Source: an uncultured Clostridium sp. (GTDB lineage: Bacteria; Bacillota; Clostridia; TANB77; CAG-465). From it: a stretch of DNA of 64,000 nucleotides. Positions 2,982 through 52,713 of the stretch are shown here, in pieces. Within the stretch, counting starts at the first letter, position 1. The number at the start of each line of letters is the position of its first letter. The position numbers and the translations under genes are program-made. The notes under the pieces are model-generated. The model ran no database searches, was not told the DNA's origin, and was given only the letters and a program-made list of their open reading frames with translations. Where the stretch lies: the NCBI GenBank assembly GCA_948470565.1, contig CAOKPF010000001.1:5866-69865 (forward strand), written 5' to 3'.

Positions 2982-3518
2982 ATGGAATATGAAGATTATG
3001 AAAAAATAATAGAAAAATTAGAAAAAGAGGAAATAGCAGAATTCCTATTAGACAGTTTAATGTCAAATAGCTCACTTAGAGATAGTTTTGAAATAACATT
3101 TTGTGAATATTGTTCTGATGGAACAAAAGATAGTATAAAAGAATTGTTGTATAATACTATAATGAGAATATCCGATAGAGGTTACATAGATGATGAAACA
3201 GGCAGTTTATTTATGGATATTATGTATGATTATGCTAATAAAGCTAAGGGTTATATAGAGAAAAATGATATAAAAAACGCTATTAATATAGTTGAATCAA
3301 CATTAGAAACAATAGGAGAATTTTATATAGATGGTTCTAATGGTGAACATGGCGATGTTCAAGATATGTTTCTGGAAATAATAGAAGATTTATTAAGTAA
3401 AAGTTCGGCTAGTGAGAAAGAACAATTCCTTATATGGTTAAAAGAATATATAGAAGTTAGCGATGAATTTGTAGATTATAAAGATGAGTTTAAAAATGTG
3501 TATGATAAATATAAATAA
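2982..3518 (+). CDS. hypothetical acidic protein
   Basis: Intact 178-aa ORF with an RBS (aggagg). No motif recognised. Confidence 0.4.
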   Translation: MEYEDYEKIIEKLEKEEIAEFLLDSLMSNSSLRDSFEITFCEYCSDGTKDSIKELLYNTIMRISDRGYIDDETGSLFMDIMYDYANKAKGYIEKNDIKNAINIVESTLETIGEFYIDGSNGEHGDVQDMFLEIIEDLLSKSSASEKEQFLIWLKEYIEVSDEFVDYKDEFKNVYDKYK

Positions 3519-4717: not shown

Positions 4718-4758
4718 AACAGTAAACATATATATTTATAAGTTTACTGTCTATTTAA
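4718..4758 (+). terminator. rho-independent terminator
   Basis: Hairpin aacagtaaac...gtttactgt followed by a T-rich tract. Confidence 0.5.
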
Positions 4759-4823
4759 TAAAAAATATATAATTGTAATTGAAAAAGTATTTAGTATTTG
4801 GTATAATAATAAACATATGAGGG

Positions 4824-7676
4824 ATGGATATGAAAATAAATAGAAATAAAGATTTTGATTCAACGCTTAATCTTCCAAAAGAAACTATATCTATAATAAG
4901 TGATTTAATAAAGAAAGAAAAATATTTTTTAAATAGCATACAAGATTATAAAAAATATAATAATGCTATCGAGAAGAATAAATTAAATGGCAAAAATTAT
5001 AATTTAGCAAGTATTCCTTTTGAAATAAATGATAAAAGTACTCCAACCCAATTAATTAACTCAATTTACAAAGATATATATATAAGACATCAGATAATGA
5101 TGGGTAACATTATAACTCATCATATAAGTTTTATTGAAAAAGGTAGTACTAATAATGAAAAGGTCAATGGTTTAAAATTAAAAGAGCAAGTAAAATATAA
5201 AAATATAAAAGAAGATGAATTAAAAGATACTACTAAAAATATTATACATGAAATAAAAAAAATGGGGGTAGTTAGCAACTATAATAATAATATAGAAAGT
5301 AGTTTTGATGAAAATACTGAAGAAAGAGTAGTTGAAAATTTTTTTAAATCATATAAAAATGGTAATATATACAAGCAGATAAGACCTGTTCATTGGTGTA
5401 CTAAATGTAAAAGTGAAATTTCACAAAGTGATGTTATAATACAAAAGGCTAGAAAAAATAATGTATATATAAAATATCGAATTAAAAATTGTGGAGAGAT
5501 TTATGAGGCAATAAATCCAAATGAAGAGATGTATTTTATTGTTGCAACAATAAGACCTTGGGTTCTTGAATCTAGTGATAGTATAGTTGCATGTAAGAAT
5601 ATGGAATATAGTATAGTAAATGTAACAGAAAATAACAAGAGTATTTACTATATTATAGCTTCTGAATGTGTAGATACTGTAATGGAAAATGCATTCTTTC
5701 TTAGATATAATATTATAAAAAAAATAGATGCAAGTAAGCTACAAAATATTATATGTTATAATCCATTAGATGAAAATAGAGAAGTAAAATTAATATATTC
5801 AACTCGTGAAAAAATAATGATAAATGATAATGATTTTACAGGGATAAATGTTGTTTCTAATACACATACATATATTGATTATTTAATAGAATTAGAAAAT
5901 AATATTGATAATTTAAAATCAATTATAGATGGTGAAGGAAATGTATATCCAAGTACTATAAAATTTAATGGTAAATTTTATAAAGATGTACAAAAAGATG
6001 TAGTAGATTACTTGAAAGAAAAGGGACTAATTTTATCTGTAATGCCAATAACTACATCTATAAATAAATGTAGTACATGCAAAACTGAACTTGTATATAA
6101 AATTGCTAATGAATGGTATATAAAAAGAGATAATGAGGTAAAAGATGAATTAAAAAATGCAATTTCTAATATAAAAAATGTGCTGAAAATACAGGATAAT
6201 AGTTTAAAAAATAATGTATTTGATATGCTTGATAAAATAAGTTTGAAAGATGAACTAAAAATTTCAGTTAATAAAAAAATTGGTATACCAATTCCTATGT
6301 TTTTCTGCGCTGATTGTGGTAAATATTTAAGTGGTGATAAATATTTTGAAATAATAAGGGATTGTATTGGGAAAAATGGTATATCTTCATTGTACAATAT
6401 GACACCTGATCAAATTTTAGGTAAAGAAATAGTATGTGAGTGCGGTAGTAATTTTTTCTTTAAAGATGATGGGGTATTTAATAATACATTTATATTATCA
6501 TCAATGCAATTTTTAAGTAAGAGTGAACAACAAAAAAGTGATGCAAATATATGTATAGCAAGTTCAAAGGAATTTTTAAAGCAAGTTTATAGTTTAAGTT
6601 ATAATAAAACAGGAGTAGAAAATTTAAGTAAATTAGATTTAATTTTAGTACATTCTGGAATTAATGAGAATATAAAAATTGTAACAATACCAATATTTTT
6701 TGATAAGTACGATGAAAATTCGTTAAGTGATTTAATTACACAAAATATAGGAATAAATGATGTAGTAAAAAAATATAGTACAGATGTATTAAGATTATGG
6801 GCAATGTCTGTTTTTAATGAAAATAATGTAAAATTAGAGGAACAAGATATTGTAAAAATAAATTCAGATTATTTAAATATAAGAAGATGTTTAAAGTATA
6901 TTTTATCAAATTTATATGATTTTATACCAGTAAGAAATTACATAGAAATAAATGATAGAACTGATTTAGATAAGTATATATATACAAAATTATATGATTT
7001 GAATGTTAATATAGATTTATGGTATGAAGATGGAATGTATAATAAAGTATATAAAGAAGTTTTTAATTTTTGTAAAAATTTCTTAACACGAGACTATTTT
7101 TCAACTTTAAAATATAGGTTATATATCTTAAGTGAAGATGATAAGATAAGAAGAAGTACACAGTCAACTTTACATGATATTTTAAATGCTTTGGTATTAT
7201 GGTTATCGCCAGTAATTCCATTTACCATAGAGGAGATATGGCCTTTCGTATGGAATAAAAATAATGATGAACAAATAAATGTACTTATGTATAGAAATGA
7301 ATTAAAAGAATACGATTTTAGAGATGTAATAGATAAATGGGATAAAATATTTGATTTTAAAAGAAAAATTACAAGGTATATAGAAAATGCCAAAAAAGAT
7401 AAAGTGATAGAAAATACATTTCAAGCTAATGTTTTGTTACAAACAACACCAAAGTCAGTTGAATTTATAAATGATAATAAAGATGAAATAGTGAGGGCTT
7501 TAAATATTTCTGAAATTGAGGCAGAAGAAAGTAATAAAAGATCTGTGAAAATTACAAAAACGACAGCACAGATGTGTCCTAGGTGTCGTAATTATACTGA
7601 TTCAATTGGTAAGTTATTGGAGTATAGATATTTGTGTGAAGATTGTGCTAAAATTTTAGTTAGCAAGAAAAGCTAG
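4824..7676 (+). CDS. isoleucyl-tRNA synthetase paralogue lacking HIGH and KMSKS motifs (predicted non-catalytic)
   Basis: Collinear similarity to IleRS along the full length: STLNLPKE N-terminus; KQIRPVHWCTKCKSEISQSDV versus the PVHWC.xC zinc-knuckle region; RPWVLE versus TTPWTLP; IGIPIP versus WGVPIP; TDVLRLWAMS versus GADILRLWVAS; ALVLWLSPVIPFTIEEIW; C-terminal CPRC...CEDC zinc finger. In place of HIGH the sequence reads KSTPTQL, and in place of KMSKS it reads DENSLSD. Confidence 0.75.
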   Translation: MDMKINRNKDFDSTLNLPKETISIISDLIKKEKYFLNSIQDYKKYNNAIEKNKLNGKNYNLASIPFEINDKSTPTQLINSIYKDIYIRHQIMMGNIITHHISFIEKGSTNNEKVNGLKLKEQVKYKNIKEDELKDTTKNIIHEIKKMGVVSNYNNNIESSFDENTEERVVENFFKSYKNGNIYKQIRPVHWCTKCKSEISQSDVIIQKARKNNVYIKYRIKNCGEIYEAINPNEEMYFIVATIRPWVLESSDSIVACKNMEYSIVNVTENNKSIYYIIASECVDTVMENAFFLRYNIIKKIDASKLQNIICYNPLDENREVKLIYSTREKIMINDNDFTGINVVSNTHTYIDYLIELENNIDNLKSIIDGEGNVYPSTIKFNGKFYKDVQKDVVDYLKEKGLILSVMPITTSINKCSTCKTELVYKIANEWYIKRDNEVKDELKNAISNIKNVLKIQDNSLKNNVFDMLDKISLKDELKISVNKKIGIPIPMFFCADCGKYLSGDKYFEIIRDCIGKNGISSLYNMTPDQILGKEIVCECGSNFFFKDDGVFNNTFILSSMQFLSKSEQQKSDANICIASSKEFLKQVYSLSYNKTGVENLSKLDLILVHSGINENIKIVTIPIFFDKYDENSLSDLITQNIGINDVVKKYSTDVLRLWAMSVFNENNVKLEEQDIVKINSDYLNIRRCLKYILSNLYDFIPVRNYIEINDRTDLDKYIYTKLYDLNVNIDLWYEDGMYNKVYKEVFNFCKNFLTRDYFSTLKYRLYILSEDDKIRRSTQSTLHDILNALVLWLSPVIPFTIEEIWPFVWNKNNDEQINVLMYRNELKEYDFRDVIDKWDKIFDFKRKITRYIENAKKDKVIENTFQANVLLQTTPKSVEFINDNKDEIVRALNISEIEAEESNKRSVKITKTTAQMCPRCRNYTDSIGKLLEYRYLCEDCAKILVSKKS

Positions 7677-7719: not shown

Positions 7720-7750
7720 CTTGACATAATATGTTGTTTTATATATAATA
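7720..7750 (+). promoter_or_regulatory. sigma-A-like promoter
   Basis: cTTGACAtaatatgttgttttataTATAAT, 17-nt spacer. Confidence 0.4.
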
Positions 7751-7801
7751 TTAAGTAGATAATAGTTGTAATACTTTAATAATTTAAAGGAGGAATTTTG
7801 T

Positions 7802-8199
7802 ATGATTATACAGGAAAAAGGTGGAAATATTTTAGAAAGTGGCGAAACTCGGATAGCTTTTGCAGTTAATATTGAAGGATTTAATGATGCAGGATTTGCC
7901 GGAACTGTTCAAGTAAGTATTGGCCAGAACTTGCAAACTATGGAAAATGTGAACTAGGTACAGTTTTGACTAAGTCTGTTAAAGGAATAACATTTTATGC
8001 ATTAGTATGTCATTCTTTGAAAACTGGCTGGAATAGTCAAATTGAAACTATAAGGAAATGTTTTGACTCTATAGAAACAGATGAGCCTATTGCAAGTATA
8101 TCCATTGGTACAGGATTGATAGGAGTATTAAGTGGAGCTGATTTTAATTTGATTAGAAGGGGGATGGAGCTTTCTAAAAAGAAAATTATACTTTATTAA
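7802..8199 (+). pseudogene. macro-domain (ADP-ribose binding/hydrolase-like) gene disrupted by a stop/frameshift
   Basis: Two adjacent frames (7802-7951 and 7966-8199) together resemble a macro domain: AGFAGTV...GxxLT...FYALVCHS...ASISIGTGLIGVLSGADF, compare SVAFPAISTGVYGYP. There is a stop codon at 7952 and a frame change before 7966. Confidence 0.45.
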
Positions 8200-8570: not shown

Positions 8571-9252
8571 TAAATATAGCATACATTAACGTCATCTATA
8601 AATCTTAATTGAACTGTGTGTTCGTTAAAGTTGGTTAGTTTTTTTGATACTCAATACGCCTTTAAATCCATGTTGGATAAGATGGTACTTCGGGCTGTGA
8701 GGGTAAGAACCTTATTGCAAAAAACTGACAATATACACTAAGAAGTAAGACTTAAAAATACCTAAACTTTTTATTGTTTTTTATTCATTTGTTATAATTT
8801 ATACCAAAAAGAGAAGATAAATTTTCCCCTTTATCTTCTCGACATTTCAATGAAACTATAATCTTTACAAATAGAAGAAAAGAAATATAAAGTAACTTAC
8901 TTCCTATTTGTTATTTACATTATACAACACTTATTTTATTTGTCAATATTAGTTTACAATAAAAATACTAACTTTTATTGTTTAACTATCGTTATATGTC
9001 TGCTTTGTATATTTATATGGCTCTTCTGGAAAGTACGTGATGTTTATCATAATTAAAATAACTTACTTAATATTATTATTTTTATACTCTTATTTCTATA
9101 TGTTTATTATCTAATAAGAATTAATTGTCATACATTTTTTGTAAGAGCCATTTATATTTTACTACTAACAACAGTACAAGCTAAGTATATTAATTTTAAA
9201 CTTTTATCATTAAATTTCTTGCAATTTTTAAGTTTATATTGTATAATTAACG

Positions 9253-9338
9253 TATCACCAAGCGATAGAAAGCTATGAACCTTGTCAGGTCTGGAAGGAA
9301 GCAGCAATAAGTAGTTATTTCTATGTGTTTGGTGTATT
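9253..9338 (+). ncRNA. ffs: signal recognition particle RNA (small 4.5S-type, domain IV)
   Basis: ccttgtcaggtctggaaggaagcagcaataag matches the SRP domain IV consensus (CAGGUCCGGAAGGAAGCAGC, GGAA tetraloop). 5' atcaccaagcgatagaaa pairs with 3' tttctatgtgtttggtgtat. Promoter TTGCAA-17-TATAAT at 9219-9247. Conserved position immediately upstream of dnaX. Confidence 0.7.
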
Positions 9339-9357
9339 ATTGTATAAGGGTGAGAAT

Positions 9358-12877: not shown

Positions 12878-14683
12878 ATGATAAAAAAAGAAAATATAAG
12901 AAATTTTAGTATAATAGCACATATTGATCATGGTAAATCAACTTTAGCAGATAGACTTATTCAATTAACTGGAAGTATAGATAATAGAAAAATGCAAGAA
13001 CAACTACTAGATAATATGGATATAGAGCGTGAAAGAGGTATAACAATAAAATCTCAATCTGTTAGAATGAAGTATAAAGCTAAAGATGGAGATGAGTATA
13101 TTTTAAACTTAATAGATACACCAGGGCATGTAGACTTTAATTATGAGGTTTCTAGGTCACTTGCAGCGTGTGAAGGTGCAGTACTTGTAGTAGATGCAGC
13201 ACAGGGAGTTGAAGCTCAAACACTTGCAAATGTATATTTAGCACTTGAAAATAATTTAGAAATATTACCAGTTATAAATAAAATTGATTTACCAAGTGCA
13301 AGACCAGAAGAGGTAAAAAAAGAAATTGAAGATACGATAGGACTTGATACTACCGATTGTCCATGTATTTCAGCAAAAACTGGTCTTAATGTAGAAGATG
13401 TATTAGAGAATATAGTAAAAAATGTTCCATATCCAAAAGGAGATGTTACAAAACCAACAGCTTGCTTAATTTTTGATTCTGTGTATGATAATTATAAAGG
13501 TGCAGTTGCTTATATTAAAGTTGTAAATGGTAAAATTAAAAAGAGTGATATAGCAATTACTATGTCTAATGGAAAAGAATATGATGTTGTTGAAGTAGGA
13601 TATTTTAAACCAGGAGCATACGAAGAATGTGAAGAATTACAAGCAGGAGAGGTAGGATATATATCTGCTAGTATAAAAAAAGTTTCTGATATAAGAGTAG
13701 GAGATACAATTACATTAAAATCAAATCCAGTAAATGAAGCATTACCTGGATATAAGGAAGTAAAATCTATGGTATATTGCGGGATATTCCCAGCAGATGG
13801 TAGTGACTATGAAATGTTAAAAGAAGCATTAGAAAAATTAAAATTAAATGATGCTTCACTAAATTTTGAGTTAGAATCATCTACTGCACTTGGGCATGGA
13901 TTTAGATGTGGTTTCCTTGGTTTATTACATATGGAAATAATACAGGAAAGATTAGAAAGAGAATATAATTTAAATTTAATAACAACAGCTCCATCAGTTA
14001 TATATAAAGTTCATAAAAATAATGGTGAAATTTTAGAATTATATAATCCATCGGATTTACCAAGTCCACAAGAAATTGAGCATATAGAAGAGCCAATAGC
14101 AAAAACAGAGATAATTTCTCCAAAAGAATATGTTGGAAATATAATGGAACTTTGTCAAGAAAGACGTGGTAAATTTATTAACATGAAATATATTGATAAT
14201 TCAAGGGTAACATTGGAATATTTATTACCTTTAAATGAAATAATATATGATTTTTTTAATAGTTTGAAATCTAGAACAAAAGGATATGCGTCTTTTGATT
14301 ATGAATTAGAAAAATACGAAAAAGCAAATCTTGTAAAACTAGATATTTTACTAAATAATGAAATAGTTGATGCGTTATCTTTTATTGTAAATAGAGAGAA
14401 GGCAGAAACAAGAGGCAGAAAAATGACAGAAAAATTAAAGGAAATTATACCAAGACAATTATTTGAAGTTCCAATTCAAGCAGCAATAGGAGGAAAGGTT
14501 GTAGCTAGAGAAACTGTAAAGGCTATGAGAAAAGATGTACTAGCTAAATGTTATGGTGGAGATATTACTAGAAAGAAAAAGTTATTAGAAAAACAAAAAG
14601 AAGGTAAGAAGAAAATGAGGCAGGTGGGAAGTATTGAACTTCCACAAGATGCATTTATGAGTGTACTAAAATTAGATGAATAA
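12878..14683 (+). CDS. lepA: elongation factor 4 (LepA)
   Basis: [17 protein letters not shown]1 motif, DTPGHVDF motif, LepA C-terminal domain. ATG at 12878 after a GGAGAG RBS (ORF-track start 12866). Confidence 0.9.
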
Positions 14684-18919: not shown

Positions 18920-19822
18920 TTAGTTATCTGCAAATTTAGGTAATTCATCTTTTGGGTATTCTGTGAATTCTCCAGTTAACATATTTTGAAGAACATATTT
19001 GTCTAAAACTGGTATTTCCCAAAAATTCTTATTTTTTAAAATAGCATATTTTCCAAAAGGTACTTCATCATCAGAAATGACTACGTTTAAAATCTTTATA
19101 CGTGAAAATGGGTACTTGTTACGAAGTTTTAAACTCATATCACATTTAAAGTTGCATTTTATAAATTTTGCAGTTTCACTATTTGTTTTATCAACTATAA
19201 CTACGCCATTACCATTTGATGTAGAATTGATTGTATATAAATATTTCCCATTAGAAGAAATTGGCTCTGAAACATAGTATGCTTCAAATAACTCTTCAAT
19301 AGTTGAACTTGGTATTATAGGTTGACCTGTTTCTAAGTTTATTTTATCACCTGTTTTTGTAGAAATTACAATTTCTGTTTTTTGGTCATCTTTTTTTATC
19401 CCAATAATGTTACCTGATGACATTACTGCATCTGTTATTGAAATTCCTATACATATAATAGCAATACAAATAAGAAATGCAACTTTCAATTCTTTGTTAT
19501 TATTCCAGCCATCAAGAATGGTTAATCCTTGAAATAATAATATGAATAGTATTTGTGCTATCGCCCCATAAAAATTATACCGGGTCGATAATGGTAAATA
19601 AATAAGTAATGATATAACAAAAGTAAGGCAAAAATAAATAACTTGCAGTATGATAGAGTATTTTAATTCATCACTTTTTTCTGAAAATCCTCTTTGTTCT
19701 ACATCTCCTATTAATGATTTTAATTTAAAACCTTTCCGTTTTATATTTTTCCAAAACCATGGTTGTATTAATATGGTTGAACAAATTCCCCAAAAGAGAG
19801 ATAAAAAAATAGGTATTAGCAT
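18920..19822 (-). CDS. hypothetical membrane-anchored protein with extracytoplasmic C-terminal domain
   Basis: N-terminal TM helices; the C-terminal ~170 aa are hydrophilic. Hairpin terminator downstream. Confidence 0.5.
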   Translation of the reverse strand: MLIPIFLSLFWGICSTILIQPWFWKNIKRKGFKLKSLIGDVEQRGFSEKSDELKYSIILQVIYFCLTFVISLLIYLPLSTRYNFYGAIAQILFILLFQGLTILDGWNNNKELKVAFLICIAIICIGISITDAVMSSGNIIGIKKDDQKTEIVISTKTGDKINLETGQPIIPSSTIEELFEAYYVSEPISSNGKYLYTINSTSNGNGVVIVDKTNSETAKFIKCNFKCDMSLKLRNKYPFSRIKILNVVISDDEVPFGKYAILKNKNFWEIPVLDKYVLQNMLTGEFTEYPKDELPKFADN

Positions 19823-39959: not shown

Positions 39960-41423
39960 ATGATGGAGTTATATAATCAAACATTAAGCAATATTGCAAA
40001 TGATATAAAATCAAAAAAAATAACAATAAGAGAAGTTTTAGATAGTGTATATTCTCGTATTGATAATATTGAACCCAAAATAGATGCTTATATTACACTT
40101 ACAAAAGATAATGCGTATAAAAGAGCTGATGAGTTACAAGAAAAATTAAATTCTGGTGAAGATATAGGGATTCTTGGAGGAGTACCAATAGCGATAAAAG
40201 ATAACATATGTACTAATGGTGTGAAAACTACATGTGCATCAAAAATGTTAGAAAACTTTGTACCAATATATGATGCAACAGTAATTGAGAAATTAGAAAA
40301 TGCAGGTGCTATAATACTAGGAAAAACTAATATGGATGAATTTGCTATGGGATCTTCTACAGAAAGTTCATATATGAAAAAAACAAAAAATCCATGGAAT
40401 ACTAATCACGTTCCAGGTGGTTCTAGTGGAGGAAGTGCTGCATGTGTATCAGCTGATATGGCATATGCTTCCCTTGGTTCTGATACAGGTGGCTCAATTA
40501 GACAACCAGCGTCATACTGTTCAGTAGTAGGGCTAAAACCTACTTATGGTTTGGTATCAAGGTATGGTTTAATAGCTTATGCTTCATCACTTGATCAAAT
40601 AGGTCCGCTTACCAAAACTGTTGAAGATGCGGCTATAATGTTAAATGTTATATCAGGATATGATCCTAAAGATACTACTTCTGCCAATATAGAAAAGAAG
40701 GATTATATAAAGTCATTGAAAAATGATATAAAGGGTATTAAAATTGGTATTGATGAGAATTTTGTAAAAGATGGAGTAAATTTAGATGTAAAAACTGCAT
40801 ATGAAAATTCGTTAAATGTTTTAAAAGAATTAGGGGCAGAAATTGTAAATGTAGATTTAAAATATGCAAAATATAGTTTAGCAACATATTACATAATTGC
40901 TACTGCTGAGGCTTCTTCTAATTTAGGAAGATATGATGGAATAAGATTTGGTCATAGGGCTAGTGAATTTGATGATTTAACAGCTCTATATGTAAAATCT
41001 AGAACAGAAGGCTTTGGAGATGAGGTAAAAAGAAGAATTATGCTTGGTACTTACGTGCTTTCATCTGGATATTATGATGCATATTACAAAAGAGCACAAC
41101 AAGTAAGAACTTTAATAATTGAAAATTTTAAAAAGGCTTTTGAAATTTGTGATACAATATTAATTCCAACAGCTCCAAACACTTCATTTAAGTTTGGTGA
41201 GAAATCTACAAATCCAATTGAAATGTATTTAGAGGATATATATACTGTTCCTGTAAATATAACAGGGTTACCTGCAATATCAGTACCAGGTGGATTTGAT
41301 ACCAATGGAATGCCTATAGGTATGCAATTTATTTGTTCTGCATTTAATGAAGAAAAATTATTACAAATTGCATATACATATGAACAAAATACAGATTTTA
41401 GTAAGAATAAACCTATTTTGTAG
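39960..41423 (+). CDS. gatA: Asp/Glu-tRNA amidotransferase subunit A
   Basis: Amidase signature GGSSGGSAA..., 487 aa. Confidence 0.9.
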   Translation: MMELYNQTLSNIANDIKSKKITIREVLDSVYSRIDNIEPKIDAYITLTKDNAYKRADELQEKLNSGEDIGILGGVPIAIKDNICTNGVKTTCASKMLENFVPIYDATVIEKLENAGAIILGKTNMDEFAMGSSTESSYMKKTKNPWNTNHVPGGSSGGSAACVSADMAYASLGSDTGGSIRQPASYCSVVGLKPTYGLVSRYGLIAYASSLDQIGPLTKTVEDAAIMLNVISGYDPKDTTSANIEKKDYIKSLKNDIKGIKIGIDENFVKDGVNLDVKTAYENSLNVLKELGAEIVNVDLKYAKYSLATYYIIATAEASSNLGRYDGIRFGHRASEFDDLTALYVKSRTEGFGDEVKRRIMLGTYVLSSGYYDAYYKRAQQVRTLIIENFKKAFEICDTILIPTAPNTSFKFGEKSTNPIEMYLEDIYTVPVNITGLPAISVPGGFDTNGMPIGMQFICSAFNEEKLLQIAYTYEQNTDFSKNKPIL

Positions 41424-41452
41424 AATGTAGTGCAATAAATGGGAGTGAGTTT

Positions 41453-43171
41453 ATGTTACAATCAAAATTAATAGCAAATACAAAAAAAGAATGGCCAAAT
41501 GAGGCTTCTACAAAAAGTCATGGCATATTACTAAAAGGTGGATATGTAAAACAGATGGCTTCTGGAATTTATACTCTTTTGCCACTTGGAAAAAGGGTTA
41601 TATCAAAAATAGAAAATATAATAAGGGAAGAAATGAATGAGATTGGTTCTCAAGAAGTGTTTATGCCTGTTGTAGCTACTAGAAAACTATGGGATATGTG
41701 TGGTAGATATGATACAGTTGGCTCAGAGTTATTAAGATTTAAGGATAGAAATGATACTGATATGGTACTTTCTATGACACATGAAGAGGCTGTTGTGTTT
41801 AGTATGATGAATGAAATTACATCATATCAAAAATATCCATTTTCTGTGTATCAAATACAAACAAAATTTAGAGATGAAGCAAGACCTCGTGCAGGACTTA
41901 TACGTGTAAGAGAATTTACCATGAAAGATGCTTATTCATTTCATACTTCTAAGGAGAGTTTAGATGAAGAATACGACAAATTTTATAAAGCATATGAGAG
42001 AATTTATGAAAGAGTTGGTATTCCTGAAACAATAGCCGTTGCTGCTGATACTGGAATGATGGGTGGAAGTGGTGCTCATGAATTTATGCTTCTTTGTGAG
42101 GCTGGTGAAGATAAAATAGTAATTTGTAATGAATGCGGATATAGTGCTAATATGGAAGTTGCATATACTAATAACATAGAAGTTGAAACTAAAACTGAAG
42201 AAAAATTAGAAAAGATATATACACCAAATATAAAGACAATTGAGGCGTTGCATGAATTTACTAATGAGAGTATAACTCATATGGGAAAAGCAGTAATATA
42301 TGAAAGGCTAGATAATAAACAAACAATTATAGTATTTATAAGGGCTGATAGGGAGGTAAATGAAACTAAACTTAGACATTTATTAAACATAGATGATGAG
42401 GACTTAATACCTAAAAAGGCAGATGATACAGATGGTATAACATATGGTTTTGTTGGACCAGTAAATTTGAATGTAGATAATTGTATCGTTGTGTATGATA
42501 AATCTTTAGAAAATGAAAAGTCTTTAATATTTGGAGCAAATGAAAAAGATTATCATATAAAGGGTATATGTGTATCAAGAGATGTACCAAATGTAGAATT
42601 TGTGGATATTTCAAAAGTAGTTGAACATGATTTTTGCCCAATTTGTAATAAAAGAGCACTTAGTATTGCTAATGGAATTGAAGTTGGTAATATATTTAAA
42701 CTTGGTAAAAAATATACAGAGTTAATGAAAATGACATATTTAGATGAAAATGGTAAAGCTAATGTACCATTAATGGGCTGCTATGGTATAGGAGTTGGGC
42801 GTCTAATGGCATCTGTTCTAGAAGCAAAAGCCACTGAGAATGCGACTAATTGGCCTGTAGAAATAGCACCGTTTGATGTACATATATGTCCAATAGATTA
42901 TACTAAAAAGAAGGAAATAACTGAATTTTCTGATAAATTATACAATGACTTAAAAAAAGATGGATTAGATGTATTATTAGATGATAGAAATAAAAATGCA
43001 GGTGTAAAGTTTGCAGATGCAGACCTTATTGGTGCACCTATAAGAATAGTAGTTAGTCCAAGAAATTTAGTAAATAATCTAGTTGAAATAAAAGTTATTG
43101 GTAATGAGGCAAAATTAGTTAATATAAATGAAATTTATGAATATATAAAAATTGCTAGAAAAAAAATTTAA
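41453..43171 (+). CDS. proS: prolyl-tRNA synthetase (bacterial type with editing domain)
   Basis: Class II motifs FRDEARPRAGLIRVREFTMKDAYSF, ...GGYVKQMASGIYTLLPLG. 572 aa. Confidence 0.85.
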   Translation: MLQSKLIANTKKEWPNEASTKSHGILLKGGYVKQMASGIYTLLPLGKRVISKIENIIREEMNEIGSQEVFMPVVATRKLWDMCGRYDTVGSELLRFKDRNDTDMVLSMTHEEAVVFSMMNEITSYQKYPFSVYQIQTKFRDEARPRAGLIRVREFTMKDAYSFHTSKESLDEEYDKFYKAYERIYERVGIPETIAVAADTGMMGGSGAHEFMLLCEAGEDKIVICNECGYSANMEVAYTNNIEVETKTEEKLEKIYTPNIKTIEALHEFTNESITHMGKAVIYERLDNKQTIIVFIRADREVNETKLRHLLNIDDEDLIPKKADDTDGITYGFVGPVNLNVDNCIVVYDKSLENEKSLIFGANEKDYHIKGICVSRDVPNVEFVDISKVVEHDFCPICNKRALSIANGIEVGNIFKLGKKYTELMKMTYLDENGKANVPLMGCYGIGVGRLMASVLEAKATENATNWPVEIAPFDVHICPIDYTKKKEITEFSDKLYNDLKKDGLDVLLDDRNKNAGVKFADADLIGAPIRIVVSPRNLVNNLVEIKVIGNEAKLVNINEIYEYIKIARKKI

Positions 43172-43187
43172 AATGGGAGGAAAAATA

Positions 43188-44621
43188 ATGAAAGATTATG
43201 AAGTAATAATCGGTTTGGAAGTACACGCAGAATTGTCTACTAATACTAAAATATATTGTGGGTGTTCGACAGAGTTTGGAGCTGATCCCAATACTCATTG
43301 CTGTCCAATATGTACAGGAATGCCTGGTACACTTCCAGTATTAAATGAGAAAGTAGTAGAATATGCAGTAAAAGCAGGACTTGCTACAAATTGTGAAATT
43401 GCAAGATTTTCAAAGCAAGATAGAAAAAACTATTTTTATCCTGATTTGCCAAAGGCATATCAAACTTCACAATATGATTTACCACTATGTGAACATGGTT
43501 ATTTAGATATAAATGTAGAGGGAAATGTAAAAAGAATAGGTATAACAAGAATTCATATAGAAGAAGATGCAGGAAAACTAATACATGATGCGTATACAGG
43601 AGCTACACTTGTTGATATGAATAGATGTGCAGTACCACTTATAGAGATTGTATCAGAGCCTGATATAAGAAGTGCAAAAGAAGCTGTTGAATATATGCAA
43701 ACATTAAAAGGAATATTAGAATACTTAGAAGTATGTGATTGTAAAATGCAAGAGGGCTCACTTAGATGTGATGTAAATTTATCAGTAAGACCAGTGGGGC
43801 AAAAGGAATTTGGTACAAGAACAGAAACTAAAAATCTAAATTCATTTAGAGCAATTGAAAATTCCATAGAATTTGAGATAAAAAGACAAATTGAAGAGTT
43901 GGAAAATGGCGGAGTTATATATCAAGAAACAAGAAGATTTGATGATACAAAAGGTATAGGGTACGCTATGCGTTCAAAAGAAGATGCACATGATTATAGG
44001 TATTTTCCTGAACCTGATTTAGCACCTATTGTTTTAAGTGATGAATATATAAATAATGTAAAGGATAATTTGCCCGAAATGCCTCATGTAAAAAAGTCAA
44101 GATATATAGATGAATTTAATTTATCAGATTATGATGCAACTCAACTTACTAGTTCTAAATATACAGCAAGTTTCTTTGAAGAAGCGACTTGTGCTTGCAA
44201 CAATGCAAAAGCAGTTGCAAATTGGATAATGGGTGATTTATTTAGAATGCTTAATGAAAGTGAAATTACAATTACTGAATGTAAAATTACACCTAAGAAT
44301 TTGGCTGAATTGATAATGTTAATAGATAATGGTACTATAAGTTCAAAAATCGCAAAAGATGTATTTATTGATATGTTTGAGAGTGGAGAGAGTGCAAAGG
44401 CGATAGTAGACAAAAAAGGATTAGTACAGATGTCTGATGAAGGTGCAATAAAAGCTTTAGTTGAAAGTGTTGTAGAAAAAAATCCAAAATCAGTTGAGGA
44501 TTATAGGGCAGGAAAGGATAAAGCGTTAGGCTTTTTGGTTGGACAAATTATGAAAGAAACAAAAGGAAAAGCAAATCCTGCAATAGTAAATAAACTTTTA
44601 TTGGAAGTACTTAATAAGTAA
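43188..44621 (+). CDS. gatB: Asp/Glu-tRNA amidotransferase subunit B
   Basis: MKDYEVIIGLEVHAEL N-terminus; GatB/YqeY C-terminal domain. Confidence 0.9.
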   Translation: MKDYEVIIGLEVHAELSTNTKIYCGCSTEFGADPNTHCCPICTGMPGTLPVLNEKVVEYAVKAGLATNCEIARFSKQDRKNYFYPDLPKAYQTSQYDLPLCEHGYLDINVEGNVKRIGITRIHIEEDAGKLIHDAYTGATLVDMNRCAVPLIEIVSEPDIRSAKEAVEYMQTLKGILEYLEVCDCKMQEGSLRCDVNLSVRPVGQKEFGTRTETKNLNSFRAIENSIEFEIKRQIEELENGGVIYQETRRFDDTKGIGYAMRSKEDAHDYRYFPEPDLAPIVLSDEYINNVKDNLPEMPHVKKSRYIDEFNLSDYDATQLTSSKYTASFFEEATCACNNAKAVANWIMGDLFRMLNESEITITECKITPKNLAELIMLIDNGTISSKIAKDVFIDMFESGESAKAIVDKKGLVQMSDEGAIKALVESVVEKNPKSVEDYRAGKDKALGFLVGQIMKETKGKANPAIVNKLLLEVLNK

Positions 44622-51062: not shown

Positions 51063-51740
51063 ATTTTATATGTATGACGGGCATGTCATAAATCTAGGGT
51101 GAAAGTCCCAAGAGGCGTATTTGTCGCGAACTCGATAGCAACTTGCAAAGCGTAAACCAGTAATGGAGCGTGAAAAGAAGCAATAGCGAAATCGTGGCTC
51201 TATGAATAAGAACTTGATATTAAGGCTTATTAGATGGATAAGTTGCCAAAACACAACAAAGTCCAAAAGACAAACGTAAATCTAATGGGTAAATCAAGAG
51301 AGTAAACGAGGAAAGAGTTATGACTTATCCCGTGAGGTCCTATAAGCGAATAAGTAGTAACAACGAATTATAGGAAGTCAGCAGAAGTCATAGTAGGTAG
51401 GAAACGAGCCAATAAAGGAAAGGAAGTCTCACGAATACTGAAGGACTGAACAATTTATAAGACTATGGAAGTCTTGAAATCTCTTGCAATTATCAGAATA
51501 AATAAAGATGAGAGGTTGAGCGTATCTTAATGGGTAATCCAAGAGATGATGTTGCAAGATAACGAAAAGAAAGGAAATAGACAAGCTATGAAAAAAAAAA
51601 ATAAAAAGCTAGGACGAAGAGGATTAGTTTTTGCCCTAGATTATTATTTAGCTTGAAATCAAACTTATAAATTGAACCGCCCATTGTCGAACAGAACGAT
51701 GCGGTGGTGTGATAGGGGATGAAAATTTTATTTTATAAAA
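51063..51740 (+). ncRNA. candidate large structured noncoding RNA (identity unresolved)
   Basis: About 700 nt with no credible ORF. GC content is markedly above the local background. The + strand is purine-rich. Internal near-repeats (cttaatgggtaa(a)tc(c)aagaga x2) and five RRAAGTCY motifs; several local hairpins. Confidence 0.4.
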
Positions 51741-51849: not shown

Positions 51850-52713
51850 ATGAATAAAAAAGAATTTGAAAATAGTCTATTAAGTAGAAATGTGGTAGAA
51901 GAGTACTTAAATAGTTCCAATGAAGAATTAGAAAAAACTTTTGGTAACCAATTTATGAGAACAGTAAATTTTGGTTCTCAGAATAATAAGGAGCATCAGT
52001 ATGATTTATTTGAACATATTTTACGAACTGTTGATAATATTCAAACAAATCATCTCTCAAGGCATGATGTTGTTATGATAAAGGTGGCAGCTTTTTTTCA
52101 TGATATAGGTAAACCAAATGTTGCAAAGGTTAATGAACAAACAGGTCAAACTCAGTATTTTAATCATGCTAAAGAGTCTGCAAAATTAGCAAAAGATATA
52201 TTAGAAAAGTTTGGCTTTAATAGTTTGGAAATAAAGGAAATAAGTTTTTTAATAGAAAGTCATGATGAGTTTATACAGATGAAAAATATTACAGATGCTA
52301 CACTTGCAAAAGTTTTAAATAAAAAAACAAAACTTGGTTTTACAATTTCCAATTTTAGGAAACTAATAATTTTATGTAGGGCTGATGTTATGGCGCAAAA
52401 AGATATTATAACAGAAAATGGAAATGTTATAGATACTAGAGTAAATAAGCTTGATAAACTTGAAATTATTGAAGCATTGTTGCCAAAATCAATTGTATTA
52501 ACACAGCAAAAAGAACTTAATAGATTAAAAAAACAGTTGAAGAATTTAGAAATTGTACCTAAACCTATAAATATTAATGGTAAAGTAGTAAATCAGGGGC
52601 AAATCGATAATTGGTATAGAATGAAAGATGAAGAAAAGATAAGTAGGGTAACAGATATTAAAGATAAAATTAATAAATTAAAAGAAGAGGTAAGATTTTT
52701 ATTAGAGAATTAA
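51850..52713 (+). CDS. HD-domain phosphohydrolase-like protein
   Basis: AAFFHDIGKP HD motif. 287 aa. Confidence 0.6.
   Translation: MNKKEFENSLLSRNVVEEYLNSSNEELEKTFGNQFMRTVNFGSQNNKEHQYDLFEHILRTVDNIQTNHLSRHDVVMIKVAAFFHDIGKPNVAKVNEQTGQTQYFNHAKESAKLAKDILEKFGFNSLEIKEISFLIESHDEFIQMKNITDATLAKVLNKKTKLGFTISNFRKLIILCRADVMAQKDIITENGNVIDTRVNKLDKLEIIEALLPKSIVLTQQKELNRLKKQLKNLEIVPKPININGKVVNQGQIDNWYRMKDEEKISRVTDIKDKINKLKEEVRFLLEN

Follow-up and report, generated by a model that had tools for sequence, protein, structure and literature searches.

What kind of protein is encoded by a gene that looks like an isoleucyl-tRNA synthetase (IleRS) from one end to the other and has nevertheless lost the motifs by which such an enzyme works? 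This question is raised by the long open reading frame (ORF) at positions 4824-7676, plus strand, of a 64,000-nucleotide stretch from an uncultured Clostridium sp. (contig CAOKPF010000001.1 of assembly GCA_948470565.1), the whole of which is called the window here. The original prediction, made from the letters alone, took it for a retained non-catalytic IleRS-derived protein, perhaps regulatory, tRNA-binding or a decoy for an IleRS-targeting antibiotic or toxin. The first part of this proposal is supported by the loss of the catalytic signatures in about 20 orthologues, by a ratio of nonsynonymous to synonymous substitution rates (dN/dS, omega) of about 0.08 and by a complete fold. The protein belongs to a small, previously undescribed family of non-catalytic aminoacyl-tRNA synthetase (aaRS) paralogues in very AT-rich gut Clostridia, and it is very probable that it is dead for aminoacylation as well as editing and is maintained by selection.

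According to the ORF list of the window, the frame of 950 codons is uninterrupted, exactly as had been described. Around it the G+C content is about 23 % by composition count, at which about 9 % of random codons are stops, and therefore a frame of this length is not expected by chance (about 4e-40 by simple arithmetic). The true start is probably the ATG at 4830 (MKIN...), because a ribosome-binding site lies 5 nucleotides upstream, the homologues all begin with MK(I/V) at this position and the database protein P0001, which is the window protein, is 948 amino acids long. The homologues have GGTGA or GAGG as ribosome-binding site, with the same spacing as in the window.

4819-4824, plus strand: ribosome-binding site GAGGGA, 5 nucleotides upstream of the ATG at 4830, as read from the sequence.
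4830-7676, plus strand: coding sequence of the pseudo-synthetase, derived from type-1 IleRS (IleRS1), 948 amino acids from the probable start or 950 if the longest ORF from 4824 is taken.

To locate the catalytic and editing motifs, 19 family members were aligned with 11 canonical IleRS in MAFFT, and a HMMER alignment served as second source; the positions are as follows.

5040-5051, plus strand: position equivalent to HIGH, residues T73-P74-T75-Q76; the preceding HDGPPYANG is lost too (both alignments).
5409-6068, plus strand: remnant of the editing domain in connective peptide 1 (CP1), from the alignment; predicted local distance difference test score (pLDDT) of the model about 80-88.
5544-5564, plus strand: equivalent of WTTTPWT, reading ATIRPWV (alignment).
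5838-5882, plus strand: equivalent of GTGxVHxAPGHGxxD, reading TGINVVSNTHTYID (alignment).
6255-6275, plus strand: position equivalent to WCISRQR, residues L478-KISVNK484 (MAFFT alignment).
6720-6734, plus strand: position equivalent to KMSKS, residues S633-L-S-D-L637 (both alignments), within loop residues 615-638 that are disordered in the model.

HIGH and KMSKS, which had been claimed to be replaced, indeed read TPTQ and SLSDL, and WCISRQR, which had been called degenerate, reads LKISVNK. The stretch that aligns with HxGH and its preceding PPYANG is IPFEINDKSTPTQ, and the motif is present in none of the 19 family sequences and in 11 of 11 canonical ones. At the KMSKS position the relatives carry unrelated sequence with K/N/E-rich inserts of 0 to about 70 amino acids. 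The losses extend to the entire substrate pocket, as WCISRQR, PGWDxHGLP, DVWFDSG and EGxDQxRGWF are replaced in every family member and HDGPPYANGxIHxGH and KMSKS are gone from all of them. That intact signatures might lie at a shifted position was considered and rejected: HMMER and MAFFT both put non-matching residues there, and since the flanking blocks NKxLKD and GTDxLRLW align cleanly, HIGH and KMSKS are not merely displaced. The editing site is lost as well. The family motifs read (S/T)TIxPW and (S/T)GIxIVSxGHxYxDY, in which the first Thr and the last Asp alone persist; this Asp (D352), at the anchor for the amino group in the editing site, is invariant, likewise Y350 and Y353. In the numbering of E. 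coli IleRS the retained Asp corresponds to D342, and the lost residues are His333, Thr243 and Asn250. Thus, the signatures for ATP and isoleucine binding, aminoacyl transfer and hydrolytic editing are all absent, and judging from these motif losses the ability to aminoacylate tRNA(Ile) can be assumed to be lost. As most of the defining features that were tested are missing, the protein cannot be counted among the isoleucine--tRNA ligases as far as function is concerned.

The erosion is unevenly distributed along the protein. In the Rossmann fold and CP1 20-28 % of the canonical-invariant residues survive (22-26 % in the Rossmann fold), largely Cys, Gly, Pro and Trp, while the helical anticodon-binding domain keeps 15 of 25 (60 %) and the C-terminal junction with the zinc domain 44 %. 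The residues that are invariant specifically in the family are mostly hydrophobic or aromatic, and no new polar, catalytic-looking cluster of His, Asp, Glu, Cys, Ser or Lys is found among them. This bears on the idea that the old scaffold was turned into an enzyme with new chemistry, either an aminoacyl-tRNA-dependent transferase like SbzA, a precedent in which Ile is moved from Ile-tRNA to a metabolite (PMC6331615; PMC9437257), or a trans-acting hydrolase using the CP1 pocket. The invariance of D352, Y350 and Y353 would agree with it, and so would the strong constraint on the 205 ex-catalytic residues at the N-terminus, for which omega is lower than in any other region (about 0.03). However, SbzA keeps HIGH and KMSKS and is encoded within a biosynthetic cluster, whereas the family has neither motif nor such neighbours, the editing Thr, His and Asn are gone and no new constellation has taken their place, which makes this explanation decidedly unlikely. 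Even less can be said for a role in immunity, or as a decoy, directed at inhibitors or toxins that attack IleRS, which is very improbable in our judgement. Resistance often comes from duplicated aaRS genes (PMC5388404; PMC9437257), and the retained IleRS surface could absorb a protein toxin or a ligand of the tRNA site, but the known resistance copies (IleRS2, MupM) are active enzymes, no defence-system model of PADLOC matches and no toxin or biosynthetic genes lie nearby. For an active-site antibiotic such as mupirocin in particular, the decoy role that had been suggested is disfavoured, as the whole adenylate pocket, where inhibitors of this type bind, is gone.

The loss is not a peculiarity of one genome. 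A search of 5.8 billion proteins returned the window protein and nine relatives of 34-39 % identity, followed by canonical IleRS at about 20 %, and a scan of GTDB species representatives gave nine genomes with a member (L002-L010, 31-36 % identity), all of them with a G+C content of 24-29 %; the hosts are Clostridium sp. CAG:921 and uncultured Clostridia of the human and rabbit gut. Among 1.84 billion cluster representatives a HMMER profile search found about 13 with at least 700 bits and two further divergent members (P0157, P0158), and the continuum of canonical IleRS starts below about 480 bits. Intact members are thus known from at least 9 GTDB species and, in addition, from metagenome clusters. 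At 50 % clustering the family comprises about 13-15 representatives, and in total about 20 orthologues with 31-39 % identity are present, all of which have lost the catalytic signatures. The family is monophyletic, under purifying selection and limited to metagenome-assembled genomes (MAGs) of very AT-rich gut Clostridia.

The dN/dS comparison, which had been proposed as a check, gave a dN of 0.098, a dS of 1.26 and an omega of 0.078 for the closest pair with available DNA (L001 and L086, 84 % identical), and approximate values of 0.12-0.26 for deeper pairs, all pairs and all regions staying below 0.26. Hence, both descent from an aaRS with loss of essential residues and purifying selection across species (dN/dS 0.078-0.255), two marks of a non-catalytic aaRS paralogue, are found. 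In favour of a pseudogene in decay, or of an artefact of sequencing or assembly, one orthologue can be cited (L007, rabbit-gut MAG CANRQA01, about 1149-1320), which has a single frameshift near codon 60 with the remainder intact and may have been misassembled or inactivated recently. Against it stand full-length intact ORFs in about 20 assemblies that were obtained independently from gut samples (human, rabbit and others), the low dN/dS (about 0.08-0.25) and invariant zinc ligands, and promoter and ribosome-binding site are conserved too. Recent pseudogenisation as well as sequencing error can be excluded, and the probability left to this explanation is negligible.

The protein has the full architecture of IleRS1. 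Pfam matches are tRNA-synt_1 (2e-20), Anticodon_1 (1e-18) and, weakly, zf-FPG_IleRS, and the matches in Pfam, NCBIfam and the PDB are exclusively to IleRS; the score against the NCBIfam model for ileS (TIGR00392), 231.1 bits, stays below the curated cutoff of 621.4. The best solved structures are the bacterial type-1 enzymes 8c9e/8c9f and 1ffy, to which residues 10-946 align in HMMER. An AlphaFold model shows the complete type-1 fold and superimposes in Foldseek on 8c9f, 8c9e and the tRNA complex 1qu2 with template modelling (TM) scores of 0.62-0.66 over about 970 columns, disorder falling at the former KMSKS loop and at the insert after HIGH. Foldseek, Pfam and the alignment agree on the multi-domain IleRS fold, which includes the anticodon-binding domain and, at the C-terminus, the Cys4 zinc domain, and the end-to-end likeness that had been noticed is thus confirmed, including all motifs listed as retained (STLNLPK, PVHWCxxC, PW in CP1, GIPIP, DVLRLW, PVIPFTIEEIW and the C-terminal CPRC...CEDC). 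The blocks NKxLKD, GTDxLRLW, RRSxQS and PIIPFTxEExW are common to all members, and three Cys4 zinc sites are kept in every member examined.

5397-5408, plus strand: first knuckle of the Cys4 zinc site at the CP1 hinge, C192-x-x-C195, invariant in the family and also present in canonical clostridial IleRS.
6069-6080, plus strand: partner knuckle of the same site, C416-x-x-C419, likewise family-invariant and present in canonical clostridial IleRS.
6306-6443, plus strand: second Cys4 zinc site, C495, C498, C538 and C540, in the CP2/CP3 region, family-invariant and also in canonical IleRS.
6894-7313, plus strand: helical anticodon-binding domain (residues 691-830) with RRSTQS and PVIPFTIEEIW, Anticodon_1 match of 1e-18, the best-preserved ancestral part.
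7575-7646, plus strand: Cys4 site of the C-terminal zinc domain, C918, C921, C938 and C941, with R920 as the equivalent of Arg888 (kept).
7587-7589, plus strand: R922, the equivalent of Trp890; residue roles from PMC11685878.

In spite of selection the gene is a fast one. Between the same genomes the family protein is 31-36 % identical, whereas its neighbours reach 55-60 % (YqfD), 53-58 % (YbeY), 72-76 % (DgkA), 56-65 % (Cdd) and 80 % (RecR), and the family gene evolves roughly twice as fast as the genes around it; canonical IleRS of a comparable low-GC lineage share 73-82 % of their residues. In a neighbour-joining tree of Kimura distances with 100 bootstraps the family is monophyletic (100/100) and joins the IleRS1 group of low-GC Clostridia (87/100). 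This fits a duplication within a low-GC clostridial lineage followed by acceleration, with long-branch or composition effects possible. A separate degenerate IleRS1 paralogue, P0159, was met on a 4.2-kb ENA contig of 25 % G+C (L096, 1353-4124), whose identity reaches 44-45 % with low-GC clostridial IleRS and 26-28 % with the pseudo-synthetase family. It retains WDTHGLP, WCISRQR, DVWFDSG and EGxDQxRGWF, whereas HIGH reads DITLGH, KMSKS reads GKKIVLD and the editing motifs are degenerate; its upstream spacer of 178 nucleotides is occupied by a terminator and a promoter, and a T-box would not fit in. P0159 is possibly an evolutionary intermediate or an independent case, and proteins of this type, with KMSKS lost and the pocket kept, may mark the evolutionary path.

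Upstream of the gene, two elements were found.

4720-4749, plus strand: hairpin CAGTAAAC ... GTTTACTG followed by TCTATTT, just past the stop of the DUF3298 gene, terminator-like as read from the sequence.
4779-4807, plus strand: promoter of the sigma-A type with extended -10 element, TTGAAA - 17 nucleotides - (TG)G TATAAT, 11 of 12 consensus matches plus TG.

The promoter pattern TTGAAW-N14-TGR-TATAAT recurs 25-40 nucleotides upstream of the start in eleven loci (L001-L006, L008-L010 and L086 among them). The hairpin is weak evidence, since its loop exceeds 8 nucleotides and the consensus terminator scan did not call it, and it can at most hint that the upstream DUF3298 gene and the pseudo-synthetase are two transcription units. 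In the related lineage a T-box lies upstream of canonical ileS (L011, 144-376; L082, 9661-9889), whereas neither a T-box nor another Rfam element was detected near the family gene in the window (at the gathering threshold and at an E of 1 or less) and in six family loci. From these sequence features the family gene appears to be uncoupled from the regulation of canonical ileS, and it has a conserved promoter of the housekeeping type.

Is it conceivable that these organisms have no other IleRS and that the protein charges tRNA by means of an active site of a radically non-canonical kind? A tblastn search of the window and of the regions flanking ten family loci gave no second IleRS, which would agree with this idea. 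Yet all residue blocks for ATP, isoleucine and the transition state are replaced, the T-box control found on canonical ileS is missing, and an identity of 31-39 %, compared to 73-82 % for canonical IleRS and 53-80 % for the neighbours, is a rate unfit for an essential translation enzyme. A sole IleRS is therefore extremely improbable, and a separate active canonical ileS can be presumed in the genomes bearing the family, because IleRS is essential and the substrate-binding residues are completely lost here. A canonical clostridial IleRS and a family member share two study cohorts (ONAT22-1, BRZ), though, for the exact sequences compared, not the same samples.

If the protein does not charge tRNA, what could it do? 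A first clue is its charge. The isoelectric point (pI) is 8.5-9.2 in the family compared to 5.4-5.7 for low-GC canonical IleRS from equally AT-rich genomes, and the net charge is +10 to +34 compared to -18 to -25; on 890 shared columns the values are +13.5 and -19.6, respectively. In terms of pI, an acidic protein (about 5.5) has turned into a basic one (about 8.9). The basic shift is concentrated in CP1 (+12.3), in the C-terminal junction and zinc domain (+8.9) and in the N-extension (+4.9), and in IleRS-tRNA complexes the shifted domains face the acceptor end and the anticodon, a placement read from descriptions in PMC11685878. tRNA binding, as proposed originally, is plausible, but canonical anticodon recognition is not preserved. 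S. aureus IleRS reads G34 via Arg888 and Trp890 of its zinc domain (PMC11685878). Of 18 family members 16 still have the equivalent of Arg888, and the CxRCW signature is broken at the Trp, which is present in 16 of 17 canonical sequences; any tRNA binding would hence have to do without canonical wobble recognition.

Another clue comes from one subclade (L008, P0007, P0009, P0151), in which the proteins carry C-terminal tails of 324-426 amino acids. The tails are of unrelated low-complexity composition, either N-rich or E/K-rich, but all of them end in F(E/N)DSFRD-COOH, which is likely a docking peptide. Internal FxDDRLG repeats and an LPPPP stretch were seen in the tails of L008 (about 12900-14170), P0007, P0009, P0018 and P0151. 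Such tails would agree with a pure protein-protein scaffold or adaptor, for instance in sporulation, cell envelope or division, with the IleRS fold as a rigid platform and without any role of RNA. The variable disordered inserts at the KMSKS position, the lost wobble-reading Trp and the frequent location of the gene near the sporulation or germination genes yabP, yqfD, GerA and PBP5 would fit as well. On the other hand, the ancestral constraint survives best in the anticodon-binding domain, the basic shift is most simply read as nucleic-acid binding, the tails are limited to one subclade, and the neighbourhood is an ordinary yqfD-ybeY-dgkA-cdd housekeeping cluster that is not kept at all loci. 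A scaffold without RNA is accordingly judged to be unlikely, with somewhat more to be said for it than for a new enzyme. Taken together, the charge, the Trp loss, the lack of a new catalytic cluster and the tails would rather favour a non-enzymatic polyanion-binding factor, possibly an adaptor.

The explanation that we put forward, a functional but catalytically dead IleRS1 paralogue acting as RNA/tRNA-binding factor or adaptor, seems moderately probable. An ancestral IleRS1 of the low-GC clostridial type would have been duplicated, whereupon one copy would have lost its T-box leader and, along with the editing site, everything that made up the aminoacylation site, while its multi-domain scaffold was kept complete. 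The resulting pseudo-synthetase would bind a polyanionic, tRNA-shaped ligand without catalysis, using its anticodon-binding and zinc domains and the CP1 surface that has become basic. tRNA(Ile) or one of its variants might serve as ligand, as might some other structured RNA, and the protein would act stoichiometrically as a sequestering factor, chaperone, regulator or adaptor, in one subclade tethered to a partner by the C-terminal docking peptide, while a separate canonical ileS would provide for the charging of isoleucine.

Several points weigh against this explanation. That the protein acts by binding RNA or tRNA is the step that we infer, and its chances are about evenly balanced. The window protein itself is the least basic member, with a net charge of +1 and a pI of 7.3, and the Trp890 equivalent is replaced in 18 of 18 family members (by K, R, G, N, L or H, mostly Lys or Arg). 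No partner gene is conserved across the family loci, and the downstream genes vary by subclade. The confidence of the AlphaFold model is moderate (pLDDT 74.8, predicted TM score 0.69). With dS at 1.1-1.7 and thus almost saturated, omega can be given approximately, although an omega well below 1 is robust. Finally, the canonical IleRS matches of the closest low-GC lineage belong either to other MAGs (CANRGE01, CASPMA01, CANQAB01) or to ENA/Logan assemblies without binning.

A more specific variant of the RNA-binding explanation, improbable as it stands, would be a stoichiometric factor that keeps the IleRS grip on tRNA body and anticodon stem with a changed reader of the wobble base. If this is true, another form of tRNA(Ile) could be recognised, for example the precursor of the AUA-decoding tRNA(Ile2) in which C34 is still unmodified, or else a different structured RNA; this would point to a control of isoleucine/AUA decoding or of tRNA maturation or availability in extreme-AT genomes, and to a protein-based tRNA sensor or chaperone made from a dead synthetase.

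In the window the gene order is yqfD-ybeY-dgkA-(178-aa ORF)-cdd-DUF3298, followed by the pseudo-synthetase. The same upstream order is present in L001, L004, L010, L086 and L088 and partly elsewhere, but is not universal, and the cdd-DUF3298 pair is likewise frequent upstream of family genes without being universal. The ORF between dgkA and cdd (2982-3518) encodes an acidic protein of 178 amino acids without Pfam or PADLOC match and without a homologue in ten related loci. In one subclade a fast-evolving protein of 517-612 amino acids, without Pfam or PADLOC match, is encoded directly downstream of the family gene (L001, 13007-14560; L086, 13020-14612 and 14799-16586; L003, 13056-14843; L007, 4626-6464). 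It is tandemly duplicated in L086 and absent downstream in the window and in other subclades; other loci have a protein of about 190 amino acids or unrelated genes in this place. In the window a small gene follows at 7721-8199, with a perfect TTGACA-17-TATAAT promoter (7721-7749) and the ribosome-binding site AAGGAGG, which is split by a frameshift near 7915-7960 into ORFs of 51 and 77 amino acids and has neither a Pfam match nor a counterpart at family loci. Behind it lie about 1 kb without an ORF of at least 80 amino acids and then the signal recognition particle RNA (9249-9346).

Further observations concern more distant parts of the window and the loci of canonical ileS. At 39960-44621 proS, encoding a prolyl-tRNA synthetase with editing domain, is located between gatA and gatB with its 3' end overlapping the gatB start, an unusual placement within the operon of the amidotransferase. 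Group II intron RNA domains are present at 51154-51446 (RF02001, 97.9 bits; RF01998, 38.8 bits); an ORF for a reverse transcriptase was not seen in the vicinity, the ORF that follows (51850-52713) encodes an HD domain, and L008 has a weaker similar match. The contig L082 of the low-GC clostridial lineage, with canonical ileS, carries an OLE RNA (19098-19698, 334 bits), and in two loci a tRNA gene lies immediately downstream of canonical ileS (L082, 12998-13069; L089, 3836-3907).

How does the family relate to known systems? With IleRS1 (S. aureus 1FFY/1QU2, Priestia megaterium 8C9E) it shares domain order and fold end to end, that is the N-extension with TLNLP, the Rossmann fold split by CP1, CP2 and CP3, the stem-contact fold, the anticodon-binding domain, the C-terminal junction and the Cys4 zinc domain, and with clostridial IleRS1 also the three zinc sites. 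Unlike IleRS1, the pseudo-synthetase has no HIGH, KMSKS, WCISRQR or isoleucine/adenylate-pocket motifs, its editing site is degenerate, it is basic, it lacks the T-box leader and the G34-stacking Trp, and it evolves 2-3 times faster. IleRS2/MupM/MupA, the mupirocin-resistant IleRS, resemble it as second IleRS-family genes in a genome, but they are active, eukaryote-like type-2 enzymes without the bacterial zinc domain, whereas the pseudo-synthetase best matches type 1, has the zinc domain and lacks the signatures. SbzA is likewise an IleRS-derived paralogue with a role outside translation; it resembles the T. thermophilus type of IleRS, has slightly changed HIGH and KMSKS and weak tRNA charging and is encoded in the altemicidin/SB-203208 biosynthetic cluster (PMC6331615), whereas the family has neither motif and lies among genes for housekeeping or sporulation. 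In evolution IleRS is held to be one of the most stable synthetases (PMC5388404), and a review of aaRS duplications from 2022 lists IleRS2 and SbzA as the only IleRS-derived paralogues (PMC9437257); full-text searches of the literature found no description of a dead IleRS paralogue of this type.

Non-catalytic descendants of aaRS as such are already known, namely HisZ and the non-charging LeuRS duplicates. What the present family adds is that a class Ia scaffold can be reused as a whole, as an IleRS of 950 residues has lost both active sites and is still under selection. It offers a natural system for roles of the synthetase body without catalysis, such as tRNA sequestration, chaperoning, sensing or tethering. 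It also carries a risk for annotation, as fold and Pfam searches will label such genes ileS and thereby mislead metabolic and completeness inferences for these MAGs. The nearest functional analogues are the class Ia duplicates of leucyl-tRNA synthetase (LeuRS): LeuRS-I of Sulfolobaceae binds tRNA and makes the adenylate but cannot charge, and in LeuRS2 of Halobacteria the charging activity is drastically reduced (PMC9437257). Like these, the pseudo-synthetase is a full-length class Ia duplicate under selection with impaired aminoacylation; its CP1 editing domain is disrupted too, and a task that depends on tRNA but lies outside translation is suspected. Unlike LeuRS-I, which still forms leucyl-adenylate, its adenylate site is gone, and parent enzyme, domain of life and lineage differ. 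A further analogue is the class II protein HisZ, the regulatory subunit of ATP phosphoribosyltransferase that resembles histidyl-tRNA synthetase and, as listed in PMC9437257, is an inactive aaRS paralogue kept as a non-enzymatic protein. HisZ consists of a class II core without anticodon domain and has HisG as partner, whereas the pseudo-synthetase, for which synteny revealed no partner, is a complete class Ia protein.

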